A DNA stretch of 64,000 nucleotides from Candidatus Nomurabacteria bacterium (GTDB lineage Bacteria > Patescibacteriota > Minisyncoccia > Phycocordibacterales > UBA9973), in assembly GCA_016199805.1 (NCBI GenBank), contig JACQGC010000018.1, positions 5,219-69,218 on the forward strand, read 5' to 3'. Both the position numbers and the translations under genes were made by a program. Below are positions 23,101-63,991 of this stretch, piece by piece. The notes under the pieces are model-generated. The model had not been told where the DNA came from, did not search any database, and saw only the letters and a program-made list of their open reading frames with translations. Position 1 is the stretch's first letter; each line of letters starts with the position of its first letter.

Positions 23101-23104
23101 CTCC

Positions 23105-23132
23105 TTGTCAAAAACCCCCAAAGATGTACTAT
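23105..23132 (+). promoter_or_regulatory. sigma70-like promoter (TTGTCA, 16 nt, TACTAT)
   Basis: -35 at 23105-23110 and -10 at 23127-23132. The predicted start (about 23139) coincides with the first base of the long stem of the downstream structured RNA. Confidence 0.4.
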
Positions 23133-23139
23133 TAAAGCA

Positions 23140-23916: not shown

Positions 23917-23938
23917 AATAAGTGGTATACTTAAACAT

Positions 23939-24484
23939 ATGAAAATAGAATCAGAATGGAAAAAAGTACCAAAACCTAGATTAGAAAAGACGTATCCAAA
24001 ATCTCCGGAAGATAGCAAAAAGCTATATGATATGAATGTTGCCTTGCTCAATTATTTGGAGCGTTATTCCGGTGATGCTGATATGCAGTTTATAAAAGAA
24101 GATTTTGAAAGATCCGAAGAATTTGGAGAAAAAATCTCTGTCTTAAAGGACGCATTGTCGGTTTTTGAAAAGGAAACAGTGGATCAAGTCAAGGCAAGTT
24201 GTCGGGCACAAATTGACGAACTCTCTGCCGCTTGGCTCAATAAAAAAAATGGAGAAGAGGTTGTGCGTCTGATAGATATCAGACTAGGTAATATTTCTGG
24301 GGATTTTGGAGTTGATATTAAAAAAGAGGCTGATAATTTCATAGCTATGTTGCGCAAAAAGCCCGAGCTTTGGGCTTTTTGTAATCTTTTGATTGTCGGG
24401 GCTCAAGTAAAAAAAGATTTAACATATTTTAGAAAAGTTACAGAAACAGCTATAGCAAGTAATTCTGGTAATACAGTTCAGTAA
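23939..24484 (+). CDS. hypothetical protein
   Basis: About 180-aa charged, helical ORF. The internal ATG at 23939 was chosen because the longer ORF overlaps the upstream gene. Confidence 0.45.
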
Positions 24485-24489
24485 AATTT

Positions 24490-24699
24490 ATGTATCTTGT
24501 TTACATTTTGGAATGCGCCGACAAGACTTTGTATGTGGGTTGCACAAACAACCTGGAGAAAAGATTAAATCAGCACAATAATCATAAATCCGGAGCCCAT
24601 TACACCAAAATCCGCCGCCCGGTGGTTTTGAAATATTTTGAGAAATATAGAACTCTAAAAAGGGGACGAGCTCGGGAACGGAAAGAAGTAAAAATTTAA
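24490..24699 (+). CDS. GIY-YIG nuclease-family protein (second copy, YhbQ-like)
   Basis: [30 protein letters not shown]...R. A palindromic hairpin follows at 24702-24724. Confidence 0.75.
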
Positions 24700-24803
24700 A
24701 TTTCGCGAGGACCGTCCTCGCGAAACTCGATTTATATTTGATTGATATCTTTTCCTTTTAGGTATAGAGTGAATTTGAAGCGGAGTTCCGATAAGGGGGA
24801 AAA

Positions 24804-25100
24804 ATGAATAGCCACAGGATCTTGTGCAAATGTGAGTGTGGTAATTACGTACAACCGTTCTCTTTGCGGGTTACAGACCAGAAGTCTTTGATGGTCATCG
24901 GAAAATGCATTGCTTGTGAGTCGCTGGTCAATGTGTTCTTCCCGCTAGATTACCTCGAGGAGTCTTGTCCGGCTCCGGCCCCGACTCTGTTAATTGAGGA
25001 AGGAAAGCCCATGCCGGGGAAACCCTTCCATTTCACGGTGGAAGATGTAAGGATGTTGCGCTCGGGGAAAATTGACCCAGAAGAGGAAGGAGAAGGATGA
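24804..25100 (+). CDS. Cys-rich hypothetical protein (putative zinc finger)
   Basis: CKCECG...CIACES; good Shine-Dalgarno (AAGGGGGAAAAATG); higher local GC. Confidence 0.5.
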   Translation: MNSHRILCKCECGNYVQPFSLRVTDQKSLMVIGKCIACESLVNVFFPLDYLEESCPAPAPTLLIEEGKPMPGKPFHFTVEDVRMLRSGKIDPEEEGEG

Positions 25101-25242
25101 GTCCTCGGGCTTTTCAAGAAGAAGGGTACTAGGGGAGGCGAGCTTCGGCTTACCTCCCCATTTAAATTATAAATTTGCAAAAAATACTACTGCTCTTGTA
25201 ATTTTCTATAAATATGTTACAGTGTTTTTGAAAGGAGCACAT

Positions 25243-25473
25243 ATGCAGAACCGAGTTATTATGGTTTCTTCGGTCAACTTGCCCGACGAAGCCGCACAGC
25301 AGATGAACGACGAAATCAAAAAGTTGGGAGAAGGCTGGAGCGTGGTTGATATCAGCACCAACGTCGAAGTATTTGGTGTTGTTGTGGACGGCATAAACAT
25401 ACCGCCCTTACACCACGCTGTATACGCCATAACCGTCGCGTTACAGAAGCCGGACTTTGAAGAGGTCGACTGA
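25243..25473 (+). CDS. hypothetical small protein
   Basis: 76-aa ORF with Shine-Dalgarno AAAGGAGCACATATG, followed by a terminator. Confidence 0.45.
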   Translation: MQNRVIMVSSVNLPDEAAQQMNDEIKKLGEGWSVVDISTNVEVFGVVVDGINIPPLHHAVYAITVALQKPDFEEVD

Positions 25474-25566
25474 CATATCGTGGCGGCGAGGACTAAAATC
25501 GGTTTCATCGGGTCGGGCGTCCGCAAGGACGTCCGGCCTTTCACTTTAAATTTAATACAAACTTTT

Positions 25567-26150: not shown

Positions 26151-26624
26151 ATGGAAAAAGATTACATTTTCAAAACCAATCCGCAAAAGTCGGCCAACAA
26201 GGTCACTATCAATAGTTTTATGATGGGTTCTTTGTTTTTCGTTTTGACTCTCATCATCACCCTCGGCTCAAGCGAATTTTCGCATGCCATAATCTTCCAG
26301 CTGTTCTTGGCAGTGCCCTTGCTTTATGTTTCCAGCTTGGCTTATTCCAAAATCGGCTACTGGAAAGAAACTTATGAGTGGGATGCTTTGGGGTGGTTTA
26401 CAAACACTCTTGGCAACCTGTTTGTCATCAACGCCATCGGCTTGCTCGCGCTAAAATTCAGCTTAGGTTTGTCTCAGATTTACTTTGCTTTGTTCTCTTT
26501 CCTGATGGTCATTTACACCCTTATTAATATCCGGCAAAACAAAAAAATATTTTACGAAAAAATGTTCAAGTTAATTTTTCTCTTGTTGGTCGTGTTCCTC
26601 GGGGGAATTTTGTTTATAATGTAA
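26151..26624 (+). CDS. hypothetical polytopic membrane protein
   Basis: 157 aa, four predicted TM segments. Confidence 0.5.
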   Translation: MEKDYIFKTNPQKSANKVTINSFMMGSLFFVLTLIITLGSSEFSHAIIFQLFLAVPLLYVSSLAYSKIGYWKETYEWDALGWFTNTLGNLFVINAIGLLALKFSLGLSQIYFALFSFLMVIYTLINIRQNKKIFYEKMFKLIFLLLVVFLGGILFIM

Positions 26625-26630
26625 ATATAA

Positions 26631-26684
26631 TTTCGGCCGAGCTTTAATGGACGATTGCGCGGCATGATTTCGCAAAATCAAATG
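26631..26684 (+). repeat. about 45-nt conserved leader element (copy A); second copy at 35801-35850
   Basis: gcTTTAATGGACGATTGCGCGGCATGATTTCGC(a/t)AAATCAAAT is shared. It forms hairpin GCCGNGC...GCGCGGC and contains an ATG opening a short uORF in copy B. Confidence 0.45.
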
Positions 26685-26984
26685 CAAAACATCAAAAAAC
26701 CATTTTTACACGCTTTCGCCGCAGCTTTATATATTGTGTTTATTGTTTTCGCTATAAGCACCATAGGTTCTAAGATACCGCAGGATAAAGCCATTCTTAC
26801 GCCCATGGTTGTCTTGAGTTTATTTGTCTTGTCCGCAGCCGTCATGGGATATTTGTTTGTCTCGCAACCACTTATGCTCTATATGGAGAATAAAAAACAA
26901 GAAGCTATGGCTTTCTTTGGCAAAACCGTGATTATCTTCGCCTGCTTCGTGGCTCTCTTTGTGATTTTACTTTTCATTTTTTAA
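26655..26984 (+). CDS. hypothetical membrane protein
   Basis: 3-TM ORF. The annotated ATG lies inside the repeated leader; the true start may be ATG 26676. Confidence 0.5.
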   Translation: MRGMISQNQMQNIKKPFLHAFAAALYIVFIVFAISTIGSKIPQDKAILTPMVVLSLFVLSAAVMGYLFVSQPLMLYMENKKQEAMAFFGKTVIIFACFVALFVILLFIF

Positions 26985-27019
26985 ACTTTACAAATACGCA
27001 ATAGTGTATAGAATGTTTT

Positions 27020-27313
27020 TTGGGGGTGCAAATGACAAAAGAAAGGGTACCAACGGTTAAGTTCTACCGGGCTACTGGGGCAGATGTTTTCGAGCCGGAA
27101 GACCAGCCCGGAAACTATTTTGTTCCGCGACGCTTGCAGCTTGGCGATGAAATGGCCGCTCTGCGTGTGAAGAAGGATGGGCGGGAGTGGGTTCCGTTTG
27201 AGTGCCTGCCAGACCACGGGGTCCGCCCACCCCTTCGGGCTGAATTGACTTTTTTCCTCCGGCACGAGCCCGGACGGATTGTCGGAAAGATTGCCAGACG
27301 GAGCTTGGCGTGA
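27020..27313 (+). CDS. hypothetical protein encoded in a GC-rich island
   Basis: 97-aa ORF in an about 58% GC segment; no recognisable domain. Confidence 0.4.
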   Translation: MGVQMTKERVPTVKFYRATGADVFEPEDQPGNYFVPRRLQLGDEMAALRVKKDGREWVPFECLPDHGVRPPLRAELTFFLRHEPGRIVGKIARRSLA

Positions 27314-27466
27314 CCCAAGCTTGGCGGGTGGCCGATTCCACCCACAAAAAACACAAGTCGTTAAGATTTCCTATGGAAAAACACTGGCGGCTTTTTATAT
27401 TTTTTCATAATGTATTCATAATTTAATTATATTGTTCTCGTGGACGTTCTACAAAAGGAGAGAAAA

Positions 27467-27970
27467 ATGTCCACACTGATGTTGGAGTTTATGGTTCGGG
27501 AATCGCGCGGGATTATAGATCTTTTCGGGTTTTTCCCGGGGAAAAGAGTAAAGATTGACAAGGCCTTCCATGAGCTGGCTTTGGGCGAGAATGGTGACCC
27601 CGACTATTCTTGTGGCGAATTGAAATGTCGTTTGTTCGAGGGCAGTACCGATGATATTCAAATGGCTGCGCTGTTCGGCGCCCCAAAGGTGGCGAACTCC
27701 AGCCGTTTGTGTTCAATTCTCAGGTACCTCGGCAACGAAGGGGAGTCGTTGTTGGATATACCGGCGGGGGCAGACAGGAAAGTTGTTATCGTGGGGTATC
27801 TCTACAACCGCGATTGGCAACCCAGCCGGGTGATTTTCGTGGAGCATGAGTTTCAGCAACGCGTAGAGCAATTTTGCCTGCGTGTCCGGACGCTCTCAAA
27901 GGGTGAGTGGCAGCTAAACAAAAACAAATGGAGGGCCGAGAATCCTCCGGCAGTACTGGTCGCCGAGTAG
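27467..27970 (+). CDS. hypothetical protein (GC-rich cassette)
   Basis: Strong Shine-Dalgarno AAAAGGAGAGAAAAATG; 167 aa. Flanked by imperfect direct repeats (cataatgtattcataat / cacaatgtattcataat) and followed by a strong terminator. Confidence 0.5.
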   Translation: MSTLMLEFMVRESRGIIDLFGFFPGKRVKIDKAFHELALGENGDPDYSCGELKCRLFEGSTDDIQMAALFGAPKVANSSRLCSILRYLGNEGESLLDIPAGADRKVVIVGYLYNRDWQPSRVIFVEHEFQQRVEQFCLRVRTLSKGEWQLNKNKWRAENPPAVLVAE

Positions 27971-27979
27971 AAATCTTTA

Positions 27980-28017
27980 CAGTCCCGCCGGTCACTACCG
28001 GCGGGACTGGTTTGTTC
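27980..28017 (+). terminator. rho-independent terminator CAGUCCCGCCGGU-CACU-ACCGGCGGGACUG plus UUUGUU
   Basis: Perfect 13-bp stem. Confidence 0.6.
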
Positions 28018-28111
28018 ACAATGTATTCATAATCTAACGATATTATTTCAAAGTCGGAAATTATAAATTTTAATTCGCAACCCAGTAGGTGATTCTACTG
28101 AATCAAATAAT

Positions 28112-28537
28112 ATGAATAAAAGCAATCCAGTAGTACATTTTGAAGTGCCGGGAGAAAATATGGACCGGATGAAAAAGTTTTATGAAACCGCTTTTGGCTG
28201 GAAGTTGAACCAACTCGGCAAAGACATGGGAGATTACGTGGTCGTAATGACGGCGGAGTCGAACGAAAAAGACCCCATGGGTCGCCCGAAAATGCCGGGC
28301 GCCATCAATGGTGGATTTTACAAAAAGACAGACGACCCCATGAGTCAGTATCCGTCCATCGTGGTGGCGGTGGATGACATAAACGAAGCGACGAAAAAAG
28401 TTAAGGATGCGGGCGGGAAAGTAATCGGCGGAATGAAAAAAGACGGCACGCCGGACGAGATTCCCGGGGTTGGCCTCTTCTCATCAATTATTGACACTGA
28501 AGGCAACAGAATAAGTATTCTTCAGCCAAAGAAATAA
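28112..28537 (+). CDS. VOC-family (glyoxalase/bleomycin-resistance fold) protein
   Basis: VVHFEVPGENMDRMKKFYETAFGWK..., about 140 aa single VOC module. Confidence 0.7.
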   Translation: MNKSNPVVHFEVPGENMDRMKKFYETAFGWKLNQLGKDMGDYVVVMTAESNEKDPMGRPKMPGAINGGFYKKTDDPMSQYPSIVVAVDDINEATKKVKDAGGKVIGGMKKDGTPDEIPGVGLFSSIIDTEGNRISILQPKK

Positions 28538-28538
28538 G

Positions 28539-29024
28539 ATGCAGCAAAAAATTACACCTTTTTTATGGTTTGATAAAAATTGCGAGGAAGCAATGAATTT
28601 CTATTGCTCGATTTTCAAGAATTCAAAAATTTTGAGTGTCAAACGCTATCCGGACGAAGACTTGGAAGGTCCGCCCAAGGGTATGCAGGGCAAAATCATA
28701 ACAGCAGTATTTGAGCTCGAAGGGCAAAAGTTTATGGCTCTAGACGGAGGTCCATATTTTAAGCCGAGTGGGGCTGTCTCTTTCTACATCGAATGCGATA
28801 CCCAAGAAGAAGTGGATTATTATTGGAATAAACTAAAAGAAGGCGGAGATGAAAAAGCCCAGCAGTGCGGATGGCTGCAGGACAGATTTGGTTTCTCCTG
28901 GCAAGTTATTCCCAAGATTCTTCCGGAACTACTAAATAGCCCCGATGCGGCGAAGGCGGACCGCACTTTAAAAGCCATGCTAAAAATGAAAAAAATTGAT
29001 ATTGAAGGTTTGAAAAATGCTTAA
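28539..29024 (+). CDS. PhnB-like VOC protein (3-demethylubiquinone-9 3-methyltransferase-domain family)
   Basis: ITPFLWFDKNCEEAMNFYCSIF...GQKFMALDGGP...CGWLQDRFGFSWQV. Confidence 0.7.
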   Translation: MQQKITPFLWFDKNCEEAMNFYCSIFKNSKILSVKRYPDEDLEGPPKGMQGKIITAVFELEGQKFMALDGGPYFKPSGAVSFYIECDTQEEVDYYWNKLKEGGDEKAQQCGWLQDRFGFSWQVIPKILPELLNSPDAAKADRTLKAMLKMKKIDIEGLKNA

Positions 29025-29130
29025 TCCCGGATATACCAAATCCCTGGACGAATTTTTCATAAAGCTTTCATAAAAATCTGGTATTTTCTTAGGGTCGAGT
29101 AGATTAAAAAAACAAGTATCAATAAATTTT

Positions 29131-29316
29131 ATGATGAAATTAGCTTGTAAAGATTTAAATCCCGCTTCCACTTGCGATTTTGTGGCCACGGGTAGTTCGC
29201 AGTCGAAAGTCGTAGGTAAAATGATGGCTCATGCCAAAGTAAATCACCCTGAAGACTTGATAGGAATGTCCGATGATGAAATTGAAAGTATGATGGACTC
29301 CAAAGTTCACGAATAA
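29131..29316 (+). CDS. DUF1059-like small metal-binding protein
   Basis: 61 aa reading MKLACKDLNPASTCDFVATG...MAHAKVNHPE. Confidence 0.55.
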   Translation: MMKLACKDLNPASTCDFVATGSSQSKVVGKMMAHAKVNHPEDLIGMSDDEIESMMDSKVHE

Positions 29317-29338
29317 AACTTCGTGTTATACTTGGTGT

Positions 29339-30331
29339 ATGACTAAATCAGCAAAAATTTTGCTATCATTAATAATTATTATTATTATTATCTTAACTTT
29401 TGTTACTGTTTTTTATTTTAGCAACAAAAAAGGAGATAACATTCCGGTGTCAGTGCAAACGGTTTCGGTTTTGGGCTGTTATATCGCCAAACTTTCGCAG
29501 GATGTTTATACGCTTCAAATTCAATCTGAAAACGACGGAGCAGAGATTGGCATACTGGCTTACAACAACTACGAGAAAGACAGTTCGTCGGGAGTTTTCA
29601 TCGGAAAACTTTCCGGAGATGTTCTCTTGGGCAACTACTCTTTTGATTCGGAAGGAATGCATTCAAACCGGCAGTTGATATTCAAAAAAGTCGGCGACAA
29701 TCTAGTGGAAGGGTTTGGCGACGTGAAAACAGCGGGAGACACCGAAACACTCGCAGATACCAGCAAGGTCATCTATGACCCTAAAGTCACTTTTGTGAAA
29801 AGCAACGACTGCTTGGAGAATTTCACTGCAGGCAATGGTTCTTTTTCTTTCAACTACAATGCTTTTTTTAGAGCAATGTCCGGCAACAGCACTCTTTCCA
29901 AAGACTGGGAATTGAATTCAAAACAAAACGGGCTTCTCTTGGCGAGTGTGTACGTACCCCAAAGTTATATGCCAAAGACAAACTTTTCCGAGGCTACACT
30001 AACGATAGGCAAGTCGGCAGACATAAGCGCCATCAAGAATTGCTTAGTGGACACAAACGGTCCTTCTGTTAAAAAAGAAGTGGCCATGGTAAGTGGATAC
30101 CCATTTACCAAGTATGTTTTTGGTGATGCCGGGGCTGGAAATTACTATGAAACAACCAGTTACCGAGGTATTGTCGGCGGAGATTGTTATGCTGTGGAAT
30201 ACACCGTTCATTCCACCAACATCGGCAATTACGACCCGAGTCAAGGCATAAAACAATTTGATAGGGACAAAATAACCGGCGATATGGAGTCTGTTATACA
30301 TAGCCTCCGGCTGATTGTCGCCAGTAACTAA
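29339..30331 (+). CDS. hypothetical membrane-anchored extracytoplasmic protein
   Basis: N-terminal TM (ILLSLIIIIIIILTFVTVFYF) and a 300-aa Ser/Asn/Gly-rich ectodomain. Confidence 0.5.
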   Translation: MTKSAKILLSLIIIIIIILTFVTVFYFSNKKGDNIPVSVQTVSVLGCYIAKLSQDVYTLQIQSENDGAEIGILAYNNYEKDSSSGVFIGKLSGDVLLGNYSFDSEGMHSNRQLIFKKVGDNLVEGFGDVKTAGDTETLADTSKVIYDPKVTFVKSNDCLENFTAGNGSFSFNYNAFFRAMSGNSTLSKDWELNSKQNGLLLASVYVPQSYMPKTNFSEATLTIGKSADISAIKNCLVDTNGPSVKKEVAMVSGYPFTKYVFGDAGAGNYYETTSYRGIVGGDCYAVEYTVHSTNIGNYDPSQGIKQFDRDKITGDMESVIHSLRLIVASN

Positions 30332-30336
30332 ATAAA

Positions 30337-31443
30337 ATGGCTCCCATAATAATTATATTTTTTGCAGGAATAGTTTCACTGGTACTCGCACTAGTGCATG
30401 TGATTGTTTACAAGGCATTTGTTTCTATTTTTTCCCTGACCGCAACGGGGAAGTTGTTTTTAGGAATTATTTTAGCCGCCTTGTGTCTGAGCTTTGTTTT
30501 GGCTTCAATTCTAACCTTTAATTTCAATAATTTATTTACCAGGACTTATTACACCATCTCGGCGACGTGGCTTGGTTTCGCTTTTTATCTGTTTTTGGCT
30601 TCGTGTATATATGTCTTGACTATTTTATTGTCACGAATTTTTGGTATTGATACTCCAAAGTTGTTTGGCATTCTGTGTCTAGTGTTGGCTCTCGCGGTGA
30701 GTATCTACGGTGTGGTTCACGCGCGCACTCTTTTGGTAAAAAATATAAATGTGACATTGCCAAACTTGCCGGCAGGGTGGCAGGGCAAGCGAGTCGTCTT
30801 TGTCAGTGACATACATCTGGGCGTGGTGCTGGGGCGGGATTTTGCGCAGAAAATTGTGGATAAAATAAACGAAATCAATCCGGACATAGTTTTTATAGGG
30901 GGCGATCTTTACGACGGAGTGAAAGTGGATGAAAACCAAATTGTTCAGCCGTTTGCAGGTTTGCATCCGGCGCTCGGTACATATTTTATCACTGGAAACC
31001 ATGAAGAATTTCGCGATAATAAGCCCTATCTGGAAGCCGTAAAAAATATAGGTATACGCGTTTTAAATAATGAGCTGGTGAATATAAATGGTTTGCAGCT
31101 TATCGGCGTGGATGACCGTGATTCTGTAAATCTGGCCAAGTTTCAAAATATTCTCGCCAATCTAAACATAAATAAAAATGAACCGTCCATTTTGTTAAAA
31201 CATGAACCATTTCAGCTGGACGAAGCTGCCAGGGTGGGCATAAGTATGCAAATTTCCGGGCATACTCACCGTGCGCAAGTTTTTCCACTGAACGGTTTTA
31301 CCTATTTAATTTACAAAGGTTATGATTATGGTCTTCATCTTTTTGGTAAAATGTCCGTGTATACTTCGAGCGGAGTGGGTACTTGGGGGCCACCGCTAAG
31401 GGTGGGTAGCGACAGTGAAATAGTTGTTTTTACATTTAGTTAA
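30337..31443 (+). CDS. membrane-bound metallophosphoesterase (calcineurin-like)
   Basis: 4 TM N-terminus; VVFVSDIHLG, GGDLYDG, GNHE and GHTH motifs. Confidence 0.75.
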   Translation: MAPIIIIFFAGIVSLVLALVHVIVYKAFVSIFSLTATGKLFLGIILAALCLSFVLASILTFNFNNLFTRTYYTISATWLGFAFYLFLASCIYVLTILLSRIFGIDTPKLFGILCLVLALAVSIYGVVHARTLLVKNINVTLPNLPAGWQGKRVVFVSDIHLGVVLGRDFAQKIVDKINEINPDIVFIGGDLYDGVKVDENQIVQPFAGLHPALGTYFITGNHEEFRDNKPYLEAVKNIGIRVLNNELVNINGLQLIGVDDRDSVNLAKFQNILANLNINKNEPSILLKHEPFQLDEAARVGISMQISGHTHRAQVFPLNGFTYLIYKGYDYGLHLFGKMSVYTSSGVGTWGPPLRVGSDSEIVVFTFS

Positions 31444-31481
31444 TAGTTTGAATTTTTGCAAATTTTTGGTAAAATAAAGAG

Positions 31482-32027
31482 ATGATGGATAAATTAAAAT
31501 TTGCTCTATTTTCAATAGTCGTTTTGGCTGTAGTCGGACTCATCGGGTATTGGGCTGTGGTCACCATCCAGTCCGGCAGTGAATTTGGAACAACCCAAAA
31601 AATTACCCAACTACAAAAAGAAAACGAAGATTTGACGAAACAATTGGCAGACCTGACTGACAAATTAAATACGCTTACACCAGAGCCGGTGGATACCACC
31701 CCTGTGGCCCAGAATCCAGATCCCCAAACACCGACTACCCCGACACAACCGACCACATATAAAAACCAATCTCTCGTAAACGAATTGCAGGTGCTTGTAT
31801 CCAATAAAGTGTTTATGAAATTAAAATCAAGCGGTACCCGGGTGGGCACCGTGCAGAAATTCTTAAATCTTTACAACAAAACTTCCAACAAAATTGATAA
31901 TGATTACGGAGCAAACATGGTCAAAGCTGTGTCCGCCTTTCAAAAAGACCAGGGTCTTTCCGCCGATGGACAAGCGGGTCCAAGCACCTACAGCAAAATG
32001 ATTGATTGGCTCAAGAAGCAGGGATAA
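31482..32027 (+). CDS. membrane-anchored protein with a putative peptidoglycan-binding domain
   Basis: TM, coiled coil, Pro/Thr linker, and C-terminal GTRVGTVQKFLN...VSAFQKDQGLSADGQAGPSTY (PG_binding_1-like). Confidence 0.6.
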   Translation: MMDKLKFALFSIVVLAVVGLIGYWAVVTIQSGSEFGTTQKITQLQKENEDLTKQLADLTDKLNTLTPEPVDTTPVAQNPDPQTPTTPTQPTTYKNQSLVNELQVLVSNKVFMKLKSSGTRVGTVQKFLNLYNKTSNKIDNDYGANMVKAVSAFQKDQGLSADGQAGPSTYSKMIDWLKKQG

Positions 32028-32033
32028 AAAACT

Positions 32034-33113
32034 ATGTATCAAGAAAAAAGACACAAACTAATAGCATTTTTCTGTGTTGCGATTGTTTTAATCGGTGGAT
32101 ATTTTACTTACACACATTCCGGGAAAAATAAAATGCCGGAAGTGAAACAAATAGATACCACCCCCACCACACAAACAGTTGCCGTGAACGTACCCATAAA
32201 AATACCGGCGAAACCTACTCCGCCGCCGTTACCTCTCGGCACGGACCAATTTGTGGTTTCGCTCGCGGCCACTTCGGATGATGTTTCCGGAAAGTTGCTG
32301 GATGGAGAATACATAAAAGATGCTTCGGCTTTTACGACACTTATAGGCGCAAAAGTAATTGCACCCGGCGCGTATAAAATTTCTAAAGACATGACCCCGG
32401 CACAACTTTTGCAAGTTTTGCGCGGCAAGCCGTATATGAAATGGATAGTCATTCCGCCCGGATTGCGCAAGGAAGAGATTGCCGCCCTGCTCGCGCCCGC
32501 CCTCGGTTGGACAAAAAAACAAACCACGGAATGGATTACCAAAGACACGATCACCAAACCGGAATACATTGAGGGAGTATATGCTCCGGATACATATTTG
32601 ATTCCGGTGGGGGAAAAACCGGTAGATGTCACCACCCGGCTCATTTCCAAATTCAACGAAGGGTTCGCGCCATACTTACCACAATTCACGGCGAAGAATA
32701 TTAAGTGGACTACAGCTCTCACTCTCGCTTCCATAGTGCAAAGAGAAGCCGCCAATGTGTCTGACATGCCGCTCATTTCCGGCATACTTTGGAACAGGCT
32801 CAATCAAAACATGATGCTGGGTGTAGATGCCACATTGCAATACATACGCGGCAACAAAGGCGCAGGCTGGTGGGCTCCGATTACTGTGGCTGACAAACAA
32901 ACCGACTCTCCATACAATACATACAAACATACCAGTTTGCCTCCGCACCCGATAGCCAACCCGAGCCTGCAAGCCATAGATGCAGTCTTAAATCCTACCA
33001 AGACAGATTGCCTGTATTATATTCACGATAAAAACCATATCACTCACTGCGCCGCCACCTACGAAGAACACCAGGTGAATATACAGAAATATTTAATCAG
33101 CCCCGCAAATTAA
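32034..33113 (+). CDS. mltG: endolytic murein transglycosylase MltG (YceG-like)
   Basis: N-terminal TM; C-terminal YceG signature (GLYSPDTYLIP..., ASIVQREA, LQ.D.T..Y). Confidence 0.75.
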   Translation: MYQEKRHKLIAFFCVAIVLIGGYFTYTHSGKNKMPEVKQIDTTPTTQTVAVNVPIKIPAKPTPPPLPLGTDQFVVSLAATSDDVSGKLLDGEYIKDASAFTTLIGAKVIAPGAYKISKDMTPAQLLQVLRGKPYMKWIVIPPGLRKEEIAALLAPALGWTKKQTTEWITKDTITKPEYIEGVYAPDTYLIPVGEKPVDVTTRLISKFNEGFAPYLPQFTAKNIKWTTALTLASIVQREAANVSDMPLISGILWNRLNQNMMLGVDATLQYIRGNKGAGWWAPITVADKQTDSPYNTYKHTSLPPHPIANPSLQAIDAVLNPTKTDCLYYIHDKNHITHCAATYEEHQVNIQKYLISPAN

Positions 33114-33157
33114 ATTACATAAAAAGTTATCCACACCCGCCATTGTGGGGAATTGAC

Positions 33158-33178
33158 ATATACCCCCAGGGGGTATAT
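33158..33178 (+). promoter_or_regulatory. CsoR-type operator ATATACCCCCAGGGGGTATAT overlapping a promoter (TTGACA at 33153-33158)
   Basis: Perfect GC-cored inverted repeat of the TACCC-N-GGGTA class bound by CsoR repressors, placed between a consensus -35 and the csoR start. Confidence 0.55.
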
Positions 33179-33187
33179 GCTGTTTAC

Positions 33188-33454
33188 ATGAAACAAGACA
33201 TAAAAAATAAAGCCTTACGCAGATTGAAGATTGTGGAAGGTCAGGTGCGGGGCTTGCAAGAGATGGTGAACAAAGAAAAATACTGTATTGATATTATTAC
33301 CCAAACCAGCGCGGTGAGAAAAGCGCTTTCCAGCGTGGAAGATTTGATCTTGGAAAATCACTTATCTACGCATGTTATTCACCAGATTAAACATGGACAG
33401 GAAGACACACCCATTAAAGAAATATTAAAAATTTATAAGCTAAAAAGCAAATGA
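33188..33454 (+). CDS. csoR: CsoR/RcnR-family metal-sensing repressor
   Basis: LRRLKIVEGQVRGLQEMV...C.D...Q..A...AL with conserved Cys and His. The stop overlaps the copA start (ATGA). Confidence 0.75.
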   Translation: MKQDIKNKALRRLKIVEGQVRGLQEMVNKEKYCIDIITQTSAVRKALSSVEDLILENHLSTHVIHQIKHGQEDTPIKEILKIYKLKSK

Positions 33455-35796
33455 ATACACCTAAAACATTTAGAATAAAAGGCATGCATTGCGCATCTTG
33501 CGCGAGCATCATAGAGAGAACCGTAAAAAAGATTGCGGGAGTGGAAGATATATCTGTAAACAACGGAACAGAAAATGTCAGGATTTCTTTTGACGAAAGT
33601 AAAACAAGTCCAGAGTATTTTAATAAAAAACTGGAACCGCTCGGATATTCTTTGGTGGTACCAGATATGAATATGCAAGGCACGGCTATGCAAATGGGCA
33701 TGAGTGAAAACGAACATGCGGCGCACCTGGGACTGAACCAGACAAAAAAAGAAAAACTGGCCGAACTAAAAGACATGCGCAATAAGCTTTTCTCACTCAT
33801 CCCGATTGTGCTGGTAAGTATTTTTGTCATGGGCTGGGATATTTCTGCGCAATTTAAAATTTTTCCGGAAATGTCCGCGACTTTCGAAAACTTTTTTCAC
33901 TATCTTTTGCCGATACTCGCCACCTATACGCTCTTTGTGGTGGGCAAGCCATATCTGCTCGGCCTGTATCGTTTTTTCCGCTACGGCAAAGCCAATATGG
34001 ACACACTGATTGGGCTCGGCACAGGAGTGGCCTTTTTATATAGTTTCATCATCAGCGCTTTCGGGGAAAGTTTGAAAAATTTTGTAAACGTTAATCAAAG
34101 TTACTACGATGTTTCGATTGTGGTCATTGCTTTCATCACCCTCGGAAAATATCTGGAGGCCCGGTCAAAACTAAAAACCGGCGATGCCATAGAAAAACTT
34201 TTAAATCTACAGGCCAAGACAGCTTTGGTAATCCGCGAAGGCAAAGACCCCGAAGGAAAGCAAGCTTCCTACGGGGCAGGGATTGAAATCCCCATCGAGC
34301 AGGTTGTTCATGGTGATCTTATTATTGTAAAGCCCGGGGCAAAAATTCCGGTGGATGGCGTCATCACTGAGGGTTCTTCTTTTGTGGATGAAGCCATGGT
34401 CACCGGAGAATCTATGCCGGTTAAGAAAAGTATCGGTGACAGTGTGGTGTCGGGAACAATAAACACGACAGGGTCTTTCGTTTTCAAAGCCACGAAAATC
34501 GGCTCGGAAACTCTCCTTGCGCATATCGTGAAAATGGTGGAAGAAGCGCAGGGCAGCAAGGCGCCCATTCAGGCCTTGGCCGATAAAATTTCAGCTATTT
34601 TCGTTCCAATTGTTTTGGGCATTGCCGTGGTCACTTTGGCTTTGTGGCTCTTGATTGGCACGCAGTATCTGGGTTTCTCGCAAGCATTTTCATTTGGGCT
34701 GGTTTCTTTTGTAGGGATTTTGGTGATAGCTTGCCCGTGCGCGCTCGGTCTGGCTACTCCAACTGCGATAATTGTCGGTGTAGGTAAAGGAGCTAAAGAG
34801 GGAATACTCATCAAAGACGCAGCTACGCTCGAAAAATTGCACAAAGTGGATACGGTGATTGTGGACAAGACCGGGACCATAACAATAGGCAAACCGACTC
34901 TGGTTGATATACAAAATTTTACGGACAAAAAAGATGAGGAAATAATTTCCATTTTAGCTTCACTCGAAAATAAATCGGAGCACCCGATAGCTCACGCGAT
35001 TATGAATTACACGAAAGAAAAAAATATTCCAATATTTGAAGTTTCAAATTTTGAAAGTATAAAAGGAAAAGGATTAAAAGGGTCAGTCGCGGGTGAAGAA
35101 TATTTTGTTGGGAATGTGAAACTAGTGCAGGATCTCAATGTGTCCTTTGATATTTCAAAAATCGAAGAATTTACAAAGCAGGGGAAAACACCGGTAATTT
35201 TAACCACAGCAGAAAAAGTGATGGGTTTTGTGATGGTGGCAGATGAAATAAAAACCGAATCAAAAAAAGCAGTGGAAGATTTACACAGACTCGGCATCAA
35301 AGTCATAATGGTGACAGGGGATGACGAGAGAACAGCCAAGCATATTGCCTCGTTGGTTGGCATCGACAGTGTCTTGGCCCACGTATTACCCGAAGATAAA
35401 TTAAACAAAATAAAAGAGTTACAAAAAGAAGGGCACGTAGTAGCCATGGCCGGAGATGGAGTCAACGACGCGCCAGCACTCGCGCAGGCGGACGTGGGCA
35501 TAGCCATGGCTACAGGCACAGACGTGGCTATCGAGAGCGCCGGCATCACCCTCCTCGGCGGAGACATTTCCAAGCTGGTCAAAGCCATAAAGCTTTCCAA
35601 GATGACCATGCTCGGCATCAAACAAAATCTCTTCTGGGCTTTTTTCTACAATGTTGTCGGTATTCCGCTCGCGGCAGGAGTATTCTATCCGCTTGGGGGT
35701 TGGCTTTTAAACCCGGTATTTGCCGGCATGGCTATGGCTTTTTCCAGTGTTTCCGTAGTCGGGAATTCATTGCGCATTAAAAGCAAAAAATTGTAA
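33451..35796 (+). CDS. copA: copper-translocating P-type ATPase
   Basis: N-terminal HMA (GMHCASCASIIE), CPC motif (CPCALGLATP), DKTGT, and GDGVNDAP. Confidence 0.9.
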   Translation: MNTPKTFRIKGMHCASCASIIERTVKKIAGVEDISVNNGTENVRISFDESKTSPEYFNKKLEPLGYSLVVPDMNMQGTAMQMGMSENEHAAHLGLNQTKKEKLAELKDMRNKLFSLIPIVLVSIFVMGWDISAQFKIFPEMSATFENFFHYLLPILATYTLFVVGKPYLLGLYRFFRYGKANMDTLIGLGTGVAFLYSFIISAFGESLKNFVNVNQSYYDVSIVVIAFITLGKYLEARSKLKTGDAIEKLLNLQAKTALVIREGKDPEGKQASYGAGIEIPIEQVVHGDLIIVKPGAKIPVDGVITEGSSFVDEAMVTGESMPVKKSIGDSVVSGTINTTGSFVFKATKIGSETLLAHIVKMVEEAQGSKAPIQALADKISAIFVPIVLGIAVVTLALWLLIGTQYLGFSQAFSFGLVSFVGILVIACPCALGLATPTAIIVGVGKGAKEGILIKDAATLEKLHKVDTVIVDKTGTITIGKPTLVDIQNFTDKKDEEIISILASLENKSEHPIAHAIMNYTKEKNIPIFEVSNFESIKGKGLKGSVAGEEYFVGNVKLVQDLNVSFDISKIEEFTKQGKTPVILTTAEKVMGFVMVADEIKTESKKAVEDLHRLGIKVIMVTGDDERTAKHIASLVGIDSVLAHVLPEDKLNKIKELQKEGHVVAMAGDGVNDAPALAQADVGIAMATGTDVAIESAGITLLGGDISKLVKAIKLSKMTMLGIKQNLFWAFFYNVVGIPLAAGVFYPLGGWLLNPVFAGMAMAFSSVSVVGNSLRIKSKKL

Positions 35797-35800
35797 AATA

Positions 35801-35850
35801 AAGCCGCGCTTTAATGGACGATTGCGCGGCATGATTTCGCTAAATCAAAT
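35801..35850 (+). repeat. about 45-nt conserved leader element (copy B)
   Basis: See 26631-26684. Hairpin GCCGCGC-N14-GCGCGGC followed by ATGATTTCGCTAAATCAAAT (a uORF MISLNQIL*). Confidence 0.45.
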
Positions 35851-35853
35851 ATT

Positions 35854-36876
35854 ATGAAAAAATACACATTCCATGTAAAAGGCACACATTGCGCATCTTG
35901 CAAAATATTGATTGAAGATATTTTCAAGGAACAGGATTTCATTGTGAGTTCAAAAGTTGATTTGAGAAATGAAACCGTAGAAATAGAAACCAATAACGAA
36001 AAAAATGCCGAAGAAATAGCTGAAATCTTAAACACGAAAATAAAACAAAACGGGTATATGCTTTCGGTGGGAAAAATCACGGAAGAGCAAAAAGAAGATA
36101 ACACTATTTGGCAAGCCATACCTATAGGACTGGCATTTTTGGTTTTGTTTTTCATGTTGCAAAAATCCGGTATTCTAAATCTGGGTGTTGGTGGCAAGAC
36201 TACACCGGTCACTGGGTTTATTATCGGAATCATCGCTTCGCTTTCGAGTTGCTTGGCGATAGTCGGGGGACTCATACTATCGTTATCCGCCAAAGTCGCA
36301 CAAGACGAGCAGTATGGCAATTTGGAAGGAGCGAAAAAACCCTTGATGTTGTTCCATGCCGGAAGATTGTTCGGCTTTGCGGTTTTGGGCGGAGTGCTGG
36401 GGTTGATTGGTGAGGCTGTCGGCATAAGCTTTGTCTTTTCGGCAATACTGGGGCTCATCGCTTCCGCGGTGATGATAATACTCGGGCTGAATCTCATCGG
36501 AATATTTAAAAAGAGCACCATCACATTACCCTCAAATATATTTTCTTTCTTTAGAAAAGTGGAACATGCCACATGGGCGCCTGTTTTGATAGGGCTAGGA
36601 ACTTTTTTCTTGCCTTGCGGTTTTACCCAGTCCATGCAAATCGCCGCCCTGTCCAGTGGTTCGTTTATTTCCGGAATGCTTATAATGTTTGCCTTTGCCT
36701 TAGGGACACTGCCGGTCCTTTCACTTCTTTCTTTCGGGTCAATGTCTTTCGCCCAGTCTAAATACGCGCCGCTATTTTTTAAATCAGCGGGAATAGTTGT
36801 GGTGGGCTTAGGAATATTCGCCTTATTAGCCCAACTTGCCGGGTTGGGAATTATTAACCCGCTTTTTAATTTATGA
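35854..36876 (+). CDS. HMA-domain protein fused to a TauE/SafE- or DsbD_2-like membrane domain
   Basis: KGTHCASCKILIE N-terminal metal-binding domain plus a 6-8 TM C-terminal domain with a conserved LPCGF motif. Confidence 0.7.
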   Translation: MKKYTFHVKGTHCASCKILIEDIFKEQDFIVSSKVDLRNETVEIETNNEKNAEEIAEILNTKIKQNGYMLSVGKITEEQKEDNTIWQAIPIGLAFLVLFFMLQKSGILNLGVGGKTTPVTGFIIGIIASLSSCLAIVGGLILSLSAKVAQDEQYGNLEGAKKPLMLFHAGRLFGFAVLGGVLGLIGEAVGISFVFSAILGLIASAVMIILGLNLIGIFKKSTITLPSNIFSFFRKVEHATWAPVLIGLGTFFLPCGFTQSMQIAALSSGSFISGMLIMFAFALGTLPVLSLLSFGSMSFAQSKYAPLFFKSAGIVVVGLGIFALLAQLAGLGIINPLFNL

Positions 36877-48389: not shown

Positions 48390-48483
48390 ATGATTGCTGG
48401 ACTCTTGTAAAATAAGGTATTATTAACTTAATTGTCATTAAAAATTAATTTTTTAAGTTGTGCTCGGCATGATTTTAAATCAT

Positions 48484-49233
48484 ATGCAAAATAAAAAAAT
48501 ATTCTATACAGTTCTGTTTGTTTTTGTTTTATTCGGTTTTGCTTCTATGGCGGCCGCATCGGTCACGATTAGCGGTACTAGTATCATCGGTACAGTCGGT
48601 TCTACTATAGATATCGGAGCTGGCAACACTCTTTTAATCCAAACTGTCGGGAACGCTCCTGTCACCATAGGCACCGGTCTGGTTACCTTGGGTGGTAATT
48701 TGAAAATTGTCGGTCTGGCTGGCAGTGGCACAAAATGTCTGCATGTGGACAATACTGGAGCGGTAGGTTTAGCTGCAGCGGATTGCGGCAGTGGTGGAGG
48801 CTCGCAACCTACGATTTTTAGCAGTGGCACAGCTGTTCAACAAGCAGTGGAGTGCGCGCATGGCACTGTCGGCACAGCCCAACTCTCCGGATTGGCGGCT
48901 GGTGCAAGTGGTGAAGTCACTCTTCAAACAGGGATTTCCGGTGATGTAAGGTGGCAAGGTATTTTACTTTCTGAAACAACTCAATTTACCGGCACAAACT
49001 TAACAGTCTCAATGGGACGCCCAGGTTCTACTACTCACGCCGAAATGACAAATGGAGTTAACTTTCCTTTAGGAGTAGGTTCTAGTGACACAAATTATTT
49101 CAGTACTCGTCCAATACCACCACAAATCACAAGTACTTACGGTGTTGTGTTAAATTTTGCTGTTACTTCCGGAAACGTCAATGCTTCCACTGGCTCTCTG
49201 ACCTGGGAAATGTGCGGATACAAAGCTCGCTAG
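48484..49233 (+). CDS. secreted hypothetical protein (KCLHV-motif family, paralog of 11405-12052)
   Basis: IDIGAGNTLLIQTVGNAPVTIGTGLVTLGGNLKIVGLAGSGTKCLHVDNTGAVGLAAADCGSGGG aligns with the 11.4-kb ORF. Confidence 0.7.
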   Translation: MQNKKIFYTVLFVFVLFGFASMAAASVTISGTSIIGTVGSTIDIGAGNTLLIQTVGNAPVTIGTGLVTLGGNLKIVGLAGSGTKCLHVDNTGAVGLAAADCGSGGGSQPTIFSSGTAVQQAVECAHGTVGTAQLSGLAAGASGEVTLQTGISGDVRWQGILLSETTQFTGTNLTVSMGRPGSTTHAEMTNGVNFPLGVGSSDTNYFSTRPIPPQITSTYGVVLNFAVTSGNVNASTGSLTWEMCGYKAR

Positions 49234-62227: not shown

Positions 62228-63991
62228 TTAATAATTAGTTGATTTAGTAAAATCACCTTGGGTTGCGAATATTTTCCAGACATTTTCAGTGTCTGTGTAC
62301 CAATGATATACGTTTGAAAAACGGTCTTTGGGGGAGATGACATGGTTTATAGAAAATCCTTTTAGATTTGGAGATACCACATATATGAAATTCGGACTAT
62401 AAAGAAAAACAGCAGGCATATCTTTTCTGATTTCATCCTCAAATTGCGCGTATTTCTTAATCCTAGCTTGTTCATCTATGGTGACAGAAGCGTCTTCCAG
62501 TATTTTGTCCACTTTTACATTGGTATACATGGCTACATTCAGCCCCGGGTCTTTCCGTTGCGTCGAGTGCCAAAAAGCAAACAAGTCTGATTCGTGATTT
62601 ATTATTTCTCCGAACAAAAGAGCGTCATAATTGCGAGGACGGATAACGCTTTGGTTCAAATTGCCAATCTCAAAAGTTTTTATGTCGACTTTCATTCCAA
62701 CATTAGCCAAATCTTGCCTTATCATCTCGGCTGTTTTGGCGAGTTCGGGAGCATTTCCGGTCGAGATGGAAAACTCCAAAGTGGTAACAGTTTTTTTCTT
62801 GCTTTTGTCAGCTGTAGTTTTTTGTAGAAATCCATCGGGTCCTTTTGACCAGCCGTCTTTAGCCAGATTGCTTTGCATTGTTTGTAGTATTTGTTCACGT
62901 GAAGTGTTGCTTGCCTTGGACATTTCTTGAAAGGAGATTACTCCGGGTGGTATAGGGCCATCGATTGCGGTTGCATACCCGAAAAGCACTTCGCGGATTA
63001 TCTTATCTTTATCTATCACTTGGCCTATGGACTTGGTGATGACTTTGTCGGTAAAGAGGCGGTTCTGATTTTGGTTGAAGAAAAGCCCGAAAATTCTCGG
63101 TAACACCGAAGAGTTTATCTCGTAATTTCTTTCCTTTAAAATATCGGCATTGAGCGGGGTGATGGAGCTTATCTGGTCTACCACTCCCGCTTCCAGGGCA
63201 TCCAAGAGGTCGTTCTCGTTTGAATAAAAATATAAATTCAAACTAGCAACATACGGCTCACCCAGTATAAATTTTTTGAACGGTACCAATTCATATGACT
63301 CTATGGCTCCCGATGTTTGCTTGATGACATTTTTTATCATATAAGGTCCGGAGCCGACGGGGGAAGTGTTTGCGTTGTTGAGTTCTATGGCTGAACCACT
63401 CCACAGATAGCTGGGCATGATGCCGATAGTCGCATTTTCCAAAAATGATTGATAAGGTTGTTTCAAGGCGAATTGAATTGTTTTATTGTCTACTTTTGTA
63501 ACCATTACTCCATCCCAGTCCACTTTGTGCGGACTTTTTATAATCGAATCTTTTGCTTCATTTATGGTGAAAAGAACATCATCTGCTGTCACTGGTTTGC
63601 CGTCTTGAAAAAATATTTTGTCTTTTAGAGTAAAAGTGTACATCAAACCATCTTTAGACATTTCATATTTTTCCGCCAAGTCTGGAATCAATGTTCCGTC
63701 TCCGTTTTTCCTCATCAATCCGGAATAAATGAGCGAAGTCATATCCAGGTCGGCCGGAGTACTGGATAGAATCGGATTTATAAAACGGGGAGTTCCGATG
63801 ATACCTTCGGAGATAGTTCCTCCGCGGGAAGGAATACTCACCATCATGGATTTATTTATTTTTTCGAGCATTGAGATGGTGCTTATAAAAAGCAGTGCTA
63901 CAAAAGCAATAAAAAATACCCATTCCTTTTTCGAGAAGGCATTAAAAACAGAATTGATTTGGTCTTTTGTAGGCAATTTAAAACTACTCAT
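62228..63991 (-). CDS. ABC transporter substrate-binding protein, family 5 (peptide/nickel type)
   Basis: N-terminal TM anchor; SBP_bac_5 fold pattern (...LIYSGLMRKNGDG.LIPDLAEKYE.S.DG..YTF.LK....F.DG.P.TA.DV.F). Confidence 0.8.
   Translation of the reverse strand: MSSFKLPTKDQINSVFNAFSKKEWVFFIAFVALLFISTISMLEKINKSMMVSIPSRGGTISEGIIGTPRFINPILSSTPADLDMTSLIYSGLMRKNGDGTLIPDLAEKYEMSKDGLMYTFTLKDKIFFQDGKPVTADDVLFTINEAKDSIIKSPHKVDWDGVMVTKVDNKTIQFALKQPYQSFLENATIGIMPSYLWSGSAIELNNANTSPVGSGPYMIKNVIKQTSGAIESYELVPFKKFILGEPYVASLNLYFYSNENDLLDALEAGVVDQISSITPLNADILKERNYEINSSVLPRIFGLFFNQNQNRLFTDKVITKSIGQVIDKDKIIREVLFGYATAIDGPIPPGVISFQEMSKASNTSREQILQTMQSNLAKDGWSKGPDGFLQKTTADKSKKKTVTTLEFSISTGNAPELAKTAEMIRQDLANVGMKVDIKTFEIGNLNQSVIRPRNYDALLFGEIINHESDLFAFWHSTQRKDPGLNVAMYTNVKVDKILEDASVTIDEQARIKKYAQFEDEIRKDMPAVFLYSPNFIYVVSPNLKGFSINHVISPKDRFSNVYHWYTDTENVWKIFATQGDFTKSTNY

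Follow-up and report, generated by a model that had tools for sequence, protein, structure and literature searches.

A promoter as well as a ribosome-binding site is present in the REP2 repeats of Neisseria (120-154 bp) and in the IR-A/IR-B repeats of Borrelia, which measure about 180 bp (PMC3184786). Neither has terminal inverted repeats (TIRs); both contain two internal stem-loops, lie directly upstream of open reading frames (ORFs), to which they fuse a 5'-untranslated region and an ATG, and are present in low to moderate copy number (PMC3184786). REP2 is confined to Neisseria and marks a set of co-regulated genes (PMC3184786). The RPE repeats of Rickettsia (Ogata et al. 2000, in PMC3184786) are palindromic repeats of a selfish type, about 105-146 bp long, known from Rickettsia only and not adjacent to start codons; they persist both in intergenic positions and in-frame within conserved coding genes, and their presence varies between relatives (PMC3184786). 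Here we describe a 48-nt hairpin repeat present in two full copies in a 64,000-nt stretch of a Candidatus Nomurabacteria metagenome-assembled genome (MAG; assembly GCA_016199805.1, contig JACQGC010000018.1, positions 5,219 to 69,218), referred to below in its entirety as the window. The repeat is apparently a previously undescribed, tiny repeat element of genomes of the Candidate Phyla Radiation (CPR, Patescibacteria).

The CPR element shares with REP2 and the Borrelia repeats the lack of TIRs, the two stem-loops, the position directly upstream of ORFs and an ATG of its own that is fused to the ORF. It differs from them in its length of 45-48 nt and in having neither a promoter nor a Shine-Dalgarno (SD) sequence and, unlike REP2, it spans many CPR lineages, precedes unrelated housekeeping genes and is also found in-frame inside genes. 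Like RPE, it is palindromic, resides in-frame in conserved genes and varies between relatives; unlike RPE, it is 45-48 nt long, has CPR hosts, abuts a start codon in 85% of its copies and contributes an insert of 13-15 codons. The element is a member of neither group, although these are the nearest to it in behaviour: it is three times smaller, has no promoter or ribosome-binding site such as REP2 possesses, and belongs to another phylum.

Three other classes of bacterial repeats resemble the element in part. REP/BIME sequences, which are associated with RAYT transposases and reach hundreds of copies, are typically found 3' of genes and share a conserved tetranucleotide, GTAG. The CPR element has in common with them a short GC-rich hairpin, clustered, nested and mosaic arrangements, the absence of TIRs and target-site duplications (TSDs), and a suspected mobilisation as single-stranded DNA (ssDNA) of the HUH/Y1 type, but it stands 5' of start codons, has no GTAG at either end and occurs in 1-3 exact-core copies per assembly. 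Miniature inverted-repeat transposable elements (MITEs) such as Correia/CREE, ERIC and RUP possess TIRs and TSDs and measure 100 bp or more. Like MITEs, which are able to change gene expression, the CPR element is non-autonomous, insertion-polymorphic and often placed 5' of genes; unlike them, it has no TIR or TSD, is 45-48 nt long and, at its target in UDG genes, is accompanied by a loss of 2-8 nt instead. IS200/IS605-derived sequences (PATE-like) have no TIR or TSD, bear subterminal hairpins and insert in a strict orientation beside a short conserved 5' flank. The CPR element has hairpins, lacks TIRs and TSDs, keeps a fixed orientation and almost never has T at position -1, and an IS200/IS605-like ssDNA mechanism would fit the missing TIRs and TSDs and the orientation; its conserved flank, N-A-T, is on the 3' side, however, and possibly part of the element, and its two hairpins are dissimilar.

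An initial annotation of the window had noticed a 41-nt pattern, TTTAATGGACGATTGCGCGGCATGATTTCGCWAAATCAAAT, upstream of two membrane-protein genes. This pattern has two exact matches in the window, 26643-26683 and 35810-35850 on the + strand, and none in 100 dinucleotide-preserving shuffles. The direct repeat delimited by a repeat finder reaches 48 nt (26636-26683 and 35803-35850; two mismatches, 96% identity), at which point the homology between the copies stops; they are spaced by 9167 nt. Each copy comprises hairpin 1, GCCG(A/C)GC-N14-GCGCGGC, and a second hairpin missed by the initial annotation, TGATTT-CGCW-AAATCA, which has a 6-bp AU-rich stem in both copies; an ATG, hereafter ATG(1), sits between the two. 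Copy 1 (26636..26683, +; 67 bits and E 7e-15 with the covariance model of the family) pairs 26636-26642 with 26657-26663, with one A/G mismatch, around the loop 26643-26656 (TTTAATGGACGATT). Its ATG(1) lies at 26664-26666, and its hairpin 2 consists of TGATTT at 26665-26670, the loop CGCA and AAATCA at 26675-26680. The following N is A at 26681, and the final two bases of the copy are the AT of the gene ATG (26682-26684), with which ATG(1) is in frame. Copy 2 (35803..35850, +; 75.9 bits, E 5e-17) has a perfect 7-bp hairpin 1 (35803-35809 with 35824-35830, loop 35810-35823), ATG(1) at 35831 and hairpin 2 at 35832-35847, and is followed by AATATT and the gene ATG at 35854. The internal ATG of this copy opens, as the initial annotation had stated, an upstream ORF (uORF) of eight codons. 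The uORF spans 35831-35857, and its TGA overlaps the gene ATG (ATGA).

Both copies occupy the gap between the stop codon of one gene and the start codon of the next. Copy 1 is flanked by a 157-aa membrane ORF, with its stop at 26622-26624, and a small membrane protein of 100 aa with no Pfam family (26682..26984, +), whose orthologues begin with MKKPFL.. or MQNIKKPFL... The NCBI record HY311_03795 (Candidatus Nomurabacteria bacterium), 100% identical to this protein, starts at ATG(1) and reads MISQNQ followed by the protein. Copy 2 lies between the stop of copA (35794-35796) and the start at 35854, within a cluster of csoR (PF02583; 33143-33454, +), copA, a P-type ATPase with an HMA domain (33451-35796, +), a membrane protein gene (35854..36876, +) and a cupredoxin gene. 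The protein encoded from 35854, previously labelled HMA/TauE-like, carries HMA and DsbD_2 (PF13386) domains and is not a TauE protein. A tRNA/tmRNA scan returned unrelated tRNAs alone.

The two-hairpin structure is supported by covariation across the family and not by the folding of single sequences, which for the two window copies is not significantly better than that of shuffles (z -0.03 and -1.8). Among 74 distinct copies, 98.5% of cells are paired, as against 24-45% in slid controls, and double-sided changes affect 4 pairs and 12 cells against 0.9 pairs and 1.1 cells in shuffles, a level that 0/500 shuffles reach. Variant stems include GTCGCGC/GCGCGAC and GCCGCGT/ACGCGGC in hairpin 1 and TGATTC..GAATCA and CGATTC..GAATCG in hairpin 2. 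The initial annotation was right in describing a conserved leader that forms a hairpin directly upstream of ORFs. On the sense strand, G.U pairs occur in 8 cells and A.C mismatches in at least 7, a near balance, and therefore the data do not tell apart RNA and ssDNA as the folded species. Additional pairing inside loop 1 was considered and dropped, the alignment, read by eye, displaying no consistent covariation there. ATG(1) is replaced by GTG, ACG or ATA in diverged copies, which rules it out as an obligatory start, and the GGA of the loop also occurs as CGA, AGA, TGA and GAA.

Further copies were sought by an exact 22-nt core, GCGCGGCATGATTTCGCNAAATC, in one genome per GTDB species. The search returned 65 matches in 50 other assemblies, of which 37 hold a single copy, 11 hold two and 2 hold three; the wider occurrence that the initial annotation had left to a genome search is thus real, and the picture of only two copies, one of them a duplication remnant, does not hold. 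The main set of loci was chosen by the exact 22-mer, so that the right half is conserved by construction; more than 90% conservation is nonetheless seen in the left half. The consensus is GCCGCGC-TTYAA-N-GGACG-R-T(T)-GCGCGGC-A-TGATTT-CGCN-AAATCA, and the covariance model recovers from the loci about ten diverged copies that lack the exact core. Copies are nested inside the hairpin-1 loop at five loci (L013, L035, L043, L044, L153), tandem at L042 and mosaic at L012, and 5'-truncated copies are found next to an ATG. Their density is patchy: one match in 401 kb (80 related loci) against two full copies and remnants in the 64-kb window.

The hosts of the core are nearly all CPR bacteria, labelled Nomura-, Magasanik-, Taylor- and Adlerbacteria, Paceibacterota, Parcubacteria, Patescibacteria, uncultured Saccharibacteria and unclassified "bacterium". 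Three labels fall outside CPR: two Gammaproteobacteria, of which L056 is the same locus as a Magasanikbacteria contig, and one Actinomycetota (L053). The Actinomycetota match (MAG contig CAWHWA010000013.1, 4779-4825) has the exact core and a 7-bp stem at the right distance. It is antisense in the conserved ..SILRNHA(R)WAVLLRGLRFVIVDECH.. motif of an Lhr-type helicase gene on a high-GC contig, with no insertion relative to the helicase family and an apparent 1-nt frameshift at the same spot. We consider it probably not a true copy, on account of its antisense position in a conserved motif and the missing insertion; it is either a coincidence or a clue to the origin of the element. Two core variants had no match among 2.9 million viral contigs, which led us to discard phage carriage. 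Rfam gave no match at the gathering threshold for either copy or for the element in the window, and none at E<=1 for four element-bearing loci. Literature searches, made also by sequence and by the peptide ARHDFAKS, found no description of the element.

The placement of the element was counted over 67 exact-core copies, 9 of which lie inside long ORFs and 58 outside. A long ORF starts on the same strand no more than 52 nt downstream in 52 of the 58 non-internal copies. The gap between AAATCA and the start is exactly 1 nt in 35 copies, and in this class ATG(1) is in frame; gaps of 0 and 2 nt are seen in two copies each, 3 nt in five, 6 nt in four, 8 nt in one, and 23, 38 and 52 nt in one each. 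Many copies start 0-15 nt past the upstream stop codon. The flanks show no upstream conservation except that T is nearly missing at -1, and the bases after AAATCA-N are A in 87%, T in 77% and G in 61% of copies. The ATGs that follow the element are native starts, as in DnaK (MAKIIGIDLGTTN) and EF-Tu (MAEFNRTKPH).

The genes downstream of 50 copies belong to 84 Pfam families, mostly housekeeping: RecA (three copies), EF-Tu, Hsp70, MreB, L22 and L35 (two each), L10 and RpoC, and also RuvB, RNase R, a tRNA synthetase, CopA (L020) and PBP. The nine internal copies are located in three UDG genes and in those for the ATP synthase gamma subunit, UvrD, a TrpD-like enzyme, TatD and TrmD, and in one unassigned ORF. 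A Pfam domain spans the insert in every one of these ORFs with an assigned family. All nine are of the variant with a 13-nt loop and are read in one frame, ..RASxDGARHDFAKS, as inserts of 13-15 codons. The 13-nt-loop consensus can be read through in four of its six frames, and the chance that all nine share one of these open frames is about (1/4)^8. An operator or an attenuator would not sit in-frame inside coding regions as these copies do.

The range of downstream genes bears directly on the proposal of the initial annotation that the two window copies form a shared operator or an attenuator-type RNA; in its specific form this would be a metal-responsive operator, for example of CsoR, or an attenuator that co-regulates both membrane-protein genes. 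The location of copy 2 in the csoR-copA-HMA/DsbD_2-cupredoxin cluster, the presence of one other copy upstream of a copA (L020) and the 6-4-6 palindrome of hairpin 2, a type bound by dimeric regulators, would agree with such a role. Elsewhere, however, the genes that follow the element are housekeeping genes unrelated to metals, and some copies are coding. Orthologues of the two window genes point the same way. The element is missing upstream of the HMA/DsbD_2 orthologue in all 80 metagenomic loci compared (52-86% identity); in most of them 2-19 nt separate the copA stop from the ATG, and the junction in the closest orthologue, L066 (86% aa identity), is TAAAATAATAAAGTAAAAAAATATG. Another group of orthologues, not preceded by copA, carries a different promoter, of the sigma-70 type, in place of the element. 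On this comparison of orthologues, copy 2 is a lineage-specific insertion. The MISxNx extension, the trace that copy 1 leaves at the N-terminus of the small membrane protein, is missing from 119 of 120 orthologues, and the metal cluster of the syntenic locus L153 has no element. A shared metal operator or attenuator is, on this evidence, very improbable. The best-supported view of the window copies is that each was inserted independently and that neither has a particular connection with copper or membrane proteins.

A separate observation concerns those HMA/DsbD_2 orthologues that have no copA in front of them. They share a promoter-like block, GTTGCGGAGCATGATTTTTTGTGATAAATTGTATGTTCAATG, with a TTGCGG -35 hexamer and an extended -10, which ends in the start codon and is found in L070, L084-L086, L091, L093, L096, L102, L104, L115, L116, L120, L132, L139 and L144. 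Its first 17 nt resemble the TTGCGCGGCATGATTTC of the element.

Close relatives display three states of the copy-1 site: the simple element in the window, an empty site in L154 and a nested composite of about 135 nt in L153. The empty site reads TCTATAAT-N8-ATG (TATAAT-N8-ATG), a leaderless-type promoter. The composite has an outer hairpin 1 around a complete element of a second subfamily, then two more hairpin modules and AATCAG-ATG. The order csoR-copA is the same in L153 as in the window, and the element is missing from its copA junction. This bears on another reading of the pair, as a remnant of a segmental duplication or as attL/attR direct repeats around an island of 9.2 kb (26.6-35.8 kb). 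Two 48-nt direct repeats 9167 nt apart, enclosing a stretch of higher GC content (27000-28000, 49-53% GC) with an SD-led ORF, are what such an event might leave. The interval's rightmost genes (PG_binding, YceG, csoR, copA) are nevertheless syntenic in L153, which is without copy 2; the same sequence recurs at 65 unrelated loci; Pfam scans of the main ORFs of the interval reveal no integrase domain; and the homology ends at 48 nt. We regard an island or duplication of this kind as extremely improbable.

The higher-GC stretch itself can be delimited to 26985-28010 (49-53% against about 42%). It holds the ORFs 27020-27313 and 27440/27468-27970, which have no Pfam family, and one of its ORFs is preceded by a classical SD sequence, AAAAGGAGAGAAAAATG, unlike the rest of the genome. 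The stretch ends in a 13-bp terminator-like hairpin (27980-28009) and is missing in the syntenic L153; a 37-nt direct repeat, 27400-27436 and 28011-28047, flanks its second ORF. It is probably foreign DNA.

Gain and loss are also seen in UDG, where an in-frame insert occupies one site in 11 of the 120 closest homologues, the others having KRED or KREE. In a distance tree of 193 columns the carriers are interleaved with empty alleles; the carrier P0001, for instance, has its nearest empties at 0.14-0.19 and its nearest carrier at 0.23. Relative to the empty site the junctions add 36, 39 or 42 nt, and 2-8 nt of the target are lost. Mobility of the element would account for such a pattern of presence and absence. 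Eight of the UDG inserts were reached by protein homology and are free of the 22-mer selection. In hairpin 2 of these eight, the third positions of the codons CAT, GAT, AAA and TCA never vary, synonymous though a change there would be. Hairpin 1 stays paired through compensatory substitutions at the cost of an altered peptide (GTCGCTC/GAGCGAC in L147, GTCGCGC/GCGCGAC in L151), while the codons next to the insert vary freely. The residue after ..AKS always has a NAT codon (D, N or H) and is never E, which about half of the empty alleles carry. A similar constraint is visible in the orthologous copies upstream of rpmI in L019 and L034, which are identical over the 21 nt outside the selecting 22-mer, whereas the flanking gene is identical at only 22 of 50 third codon positions (44%). 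This pattern reflects either recent arrivals from a conserved pool that hit the same sites repeatedly or selection at the nucleotide level on resident copies.

Taken together, these comparisons lead us to hold with moderate confidence that the element is a non-autonomous, start-codon-proximal palindromic repeat, inserted lineage by lineage 5' of N-AT(G) and carried either as a leader or as an in-frame peptide. The element is about 45-48 nt long and consists of a GC-rich 7-bp hairpin, GCCGCGC-N13/14-GCGCGGC, with the loop ..AA-N-GGACG-R-T(T), one A, the AU-rich TGATTT-CGCN-AAATCA, and N-A-T. It is found in one orientation, sense to the gene and directly 5' of N-A-T(G), and usually fills the space from the upstream stop codon, or from a leaderless-type -10 box, to the start codon. 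After insertion it would be co-transcribed and form the whole 5' leader of the downstream cistron, often as a 5'-terminal hairpin, and would add either an in-frame upstream ATG (MISxNx-M..) or a short uORF terminating at the genuine ATG.

Several observations weigh against this interpretation. A Pfam scan of about 20 window ORFs included no transposase, and in the loci analysed, as distinct from whole genomes, no gene for a transposase, a reverse transcriptase or any other mobilising enzyme could be linked to the element. The ends of the element, GCCGCGC.. and ..AAATCA(NAT), are not mutual inverted repeats, so that there are no TIRs, and comparisons of empty and filled sites revealed no TSD. 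The copy number is low, 1-3 exact-core copies per MAG. All nine in-ORF copies share one frame although four of six are open, and the 1-nt spacing to the ATG (35/58) together with the strict sense orientation is tighter than random insertion followed by selection obviously gives. Resident copies, as judged from rpmI and UDG, look selected rather than decaying.

The translational context of the host is relevant to what a resident copy might do. An SD-like motif precedes 3 of the 75 window ORFs, and the genome is essentially SD-less. Strong -10-like hexamers are concentrated at a distance of 5-8 nt from the ATG, where 12 of 51 ORFs have one as against about one per offset elsewhere; this is the arrangement of leaderless mRNAs and suggests that such transcripts may be widespread in the source MAG; ORFs 271, 6682, 8417, 29339, 40618, 44365, 45537, 46817 and 51577 are examples of the pattern in the window. 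No paper linking "leaderless" with CPR was found. The same -10 peak occurs before the first G of the element, at 4-9 nt in 15 of 61 copies; promoter-proximal copies therefore occupy exactly the interval from the transcription start to the ATG, and their transcripts would begin with hairpin 1. The element itself is a very doubtful candidate for a promoter of leaderless downstream transcription or for an intrinsic terminator of the upstream gene. Its intergenic position, the likeness of TTGCGC to a -35 hexamer and the resemblance of its 3' half to the promoters of some HMA/DsbD_2 orthologues (GTTGCGGAGCATGATTTTTTGTGATAAAT) would speak for such a function, but a scan of the + strand for consensus sigma-70 promoters and intrinsic terminators was empty in both window copies, TTGCGC stands just 13 nt from the nearest -10-like hexamer, a spacing that fails, and no T-run follows hairpin 1. 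Many copies, besides, have a -10 box of their own upstream, and others lie within ORFs.

Two motifs in loop 1 were also considered. An SD mimic (AAGGACG, 9-10 nt before ATG(1)) was rejected because neither GGA nor the base in front of it is constant and the genome makes no use of SD sequences. A-N-GGA is the core of CsrA-type sites. Its occurrence in the loop as a site of that type is a weak idea, with a CsrA gene sought among the scanned ORFs only.

Selection on resident copies would be explained if the element were a cis-acting RNA module useful to its host, possibly a domesticated mobile element, serving as a portable leader in an SD-less genome of leaderless type. A generic cis-acting RNA role is possible, and candidate functions include an mRNA-stabilising 5' hairpin, a processing site near the AUG, a site for an RNA-binding factor, or ribosome recruitment. 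We give such a module tentative standing beside the insertion of a palindromic repeat, with which it is compatible. Nucleotide-level conservation at orthologous sites and at the synonymous positions of UDG, the compensatory changes that keep both hairpins beyond anything in the 500 shuffles, the strict sense orientation with 1-nt spacing to the ATG, the scarcity of SD-like motifs (3/75) and the -10 peaks before both the ATG and the first G of the element all agree with it, as does the recurrence before highly expressed genes (tuf, dnaK, recA three times, rplV, rpmI, rplJ, rpoC). The element is nonetheless missing from most orthologues of every gene examined and so is not needed for their expression, and copies within ORFs make no sense as leaders. 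Neither the GGA of the loop (CGA, AGA, TGA, GAA) nor ATG(1) (GTG, ACG, ATA) is invariant, A.C mismatches are as common as G.U pairs and give no signal of an RNA strand, Rfam has no match, and truncated, decaying copies exist.

A bolder version, which we regard as rather unlikely, sees in the element a mobile leader that homes to start codons: a unit of 45-48 nt that, in genomes with leaderless or coupled initiation, would be actively directed to the 5' edge of N-ATG and recognised by a conserved CPR factor. Targeting would proceed by an ssDNA/HUH mechanism or by an RNA/reverse-transcriptase template switch; the latter would account for a 3' junction that is precise, for 5' junctions that vary and come with small deletions of the target, and for copies truncated at the 5' end. 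Insertion would turn leaderless cistrons into leadered ones that start with a terminal hairpin. Recognition by such a factor would explain why the sequence is nearly identical from one CPR class to another and why synonymous sites are under selection. Should this prove true, the element would be a new kind of bacterial element that combines gene-start targeting with a transferable expression signal.

The covariance model finds no full copies in the window beyond the two described, and one 5'-truncated match at 48460-48482. This degenerate copy, GTGCTCGGC-ATGATTT--TAAATCA-T-ATG (48460..48486, +; 14.7 bits, E 0.07), consists of a remnant of the 3' arm of hairpin 1 and a shortened hairpin 2, and ends 1 nt before the ATG at 48484 of an ORF that runs to 49233. 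A related module, family C, comprises TTCGCAACCCAGTAGG and the hairpin TGATTC-TACT-GAATCA at 28074..28111 (+); it is followed by AATAAT, a gap of 6 nt, and the ATG at 28112 of a glyoxalase-family gene. Family C also adjoins the canonical element in the L153 composite upstream of the copy-1 orthologue, and occurs in L154. A degenerate family-C-like module, TTCGCAACCCAAGG with TGATTT-TACT-AAATCA, is assigned with low confidence to 62240..62269 (-), its hairpin alone having E about 0.7-0.9. Its hairpin differs from that at 28074 by a compensatory change from C-G to T-A. The module overlaps the final codons (..GDFTKSTNY*) of ORF 62228-64000(-) and precedes the ATG of ORF 60264-62204(-) by 35 nt.

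Other repeats and foreign-looking regions of the window were recorded alongside. A 52-nt repeat, 88% identical between 5206-5257 and 47255-47306, ends in ..AATTTAAAATTTTAGTACTGGGATGA and overlaps the start codons of two ORFs, 5254 and 47303, that are unrelated to each other; either a common promoter or start region or a further start-proximal repeat family may be involved. The 32-nt GC-rich direct repeat TTGAGGGGTGGCGCTTGCGCCGGGGTGGAWAT (97% identical; 17621-17652 and 19916-19947) brackets three ORFs, 17719-19904. Two copies of a 49-nt sequence, 80% identical (40098-40146 and 40538-40586), begin with a long perfect palindrome, TGCCCCATTTACGCCATGGCGTAAATGGGGCA, and bracket a 139-aa ORF with a Cas2-like/PaaX_M domain (40097-40516); the arrangement may be a small mobile or addiction module. 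The stretch of about 22650-25550, which comes after tRNA-Gln (22182-22253) and a GIY-YIG-like ORF (22289-22570), contains many overlapping ORFs on both strands without a clear gene model, one of them, ORF 24804, preceded by the SD-like GGGGGAAAA; it may be another inserted region. A cobalamin riboswitch (RF00174) scores 36.6 bits, above the gathering score, at 57223-57362 (-), upstream of the ORFs 56684-57172 and 55063-56727 (-).

CPR bacteria make up a large share of bacterial diversity and have tiny, packed genomes, and their gene expression is almost unstudied. For the annotation of these genomes, the element gives rise to false N-terminal extensions, such as the MISQNQ.. called by PGAP, and to inserts of 13-15 residues in core enzymes; its copies are likely to cause systematic mis-calls of start codons and unexplained 13-15-aa inserts across CPR proteomes. 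For genome dynamics, it indicates that streamlined CPR genomes tolerate and exchange a selfish-looking element in essential genes and at the starts of genes. For translation, a structured leader of 47 nt placed 1 nt from the AUG of tuf, dnaK and recA must suit initiation or be processed away, and the element offers a handle on translation start in an organism with essentially no Shine-Dalgarno sequences. If a conserved factor does recognise it, the element would also provide a portable tag for CPR genetics.

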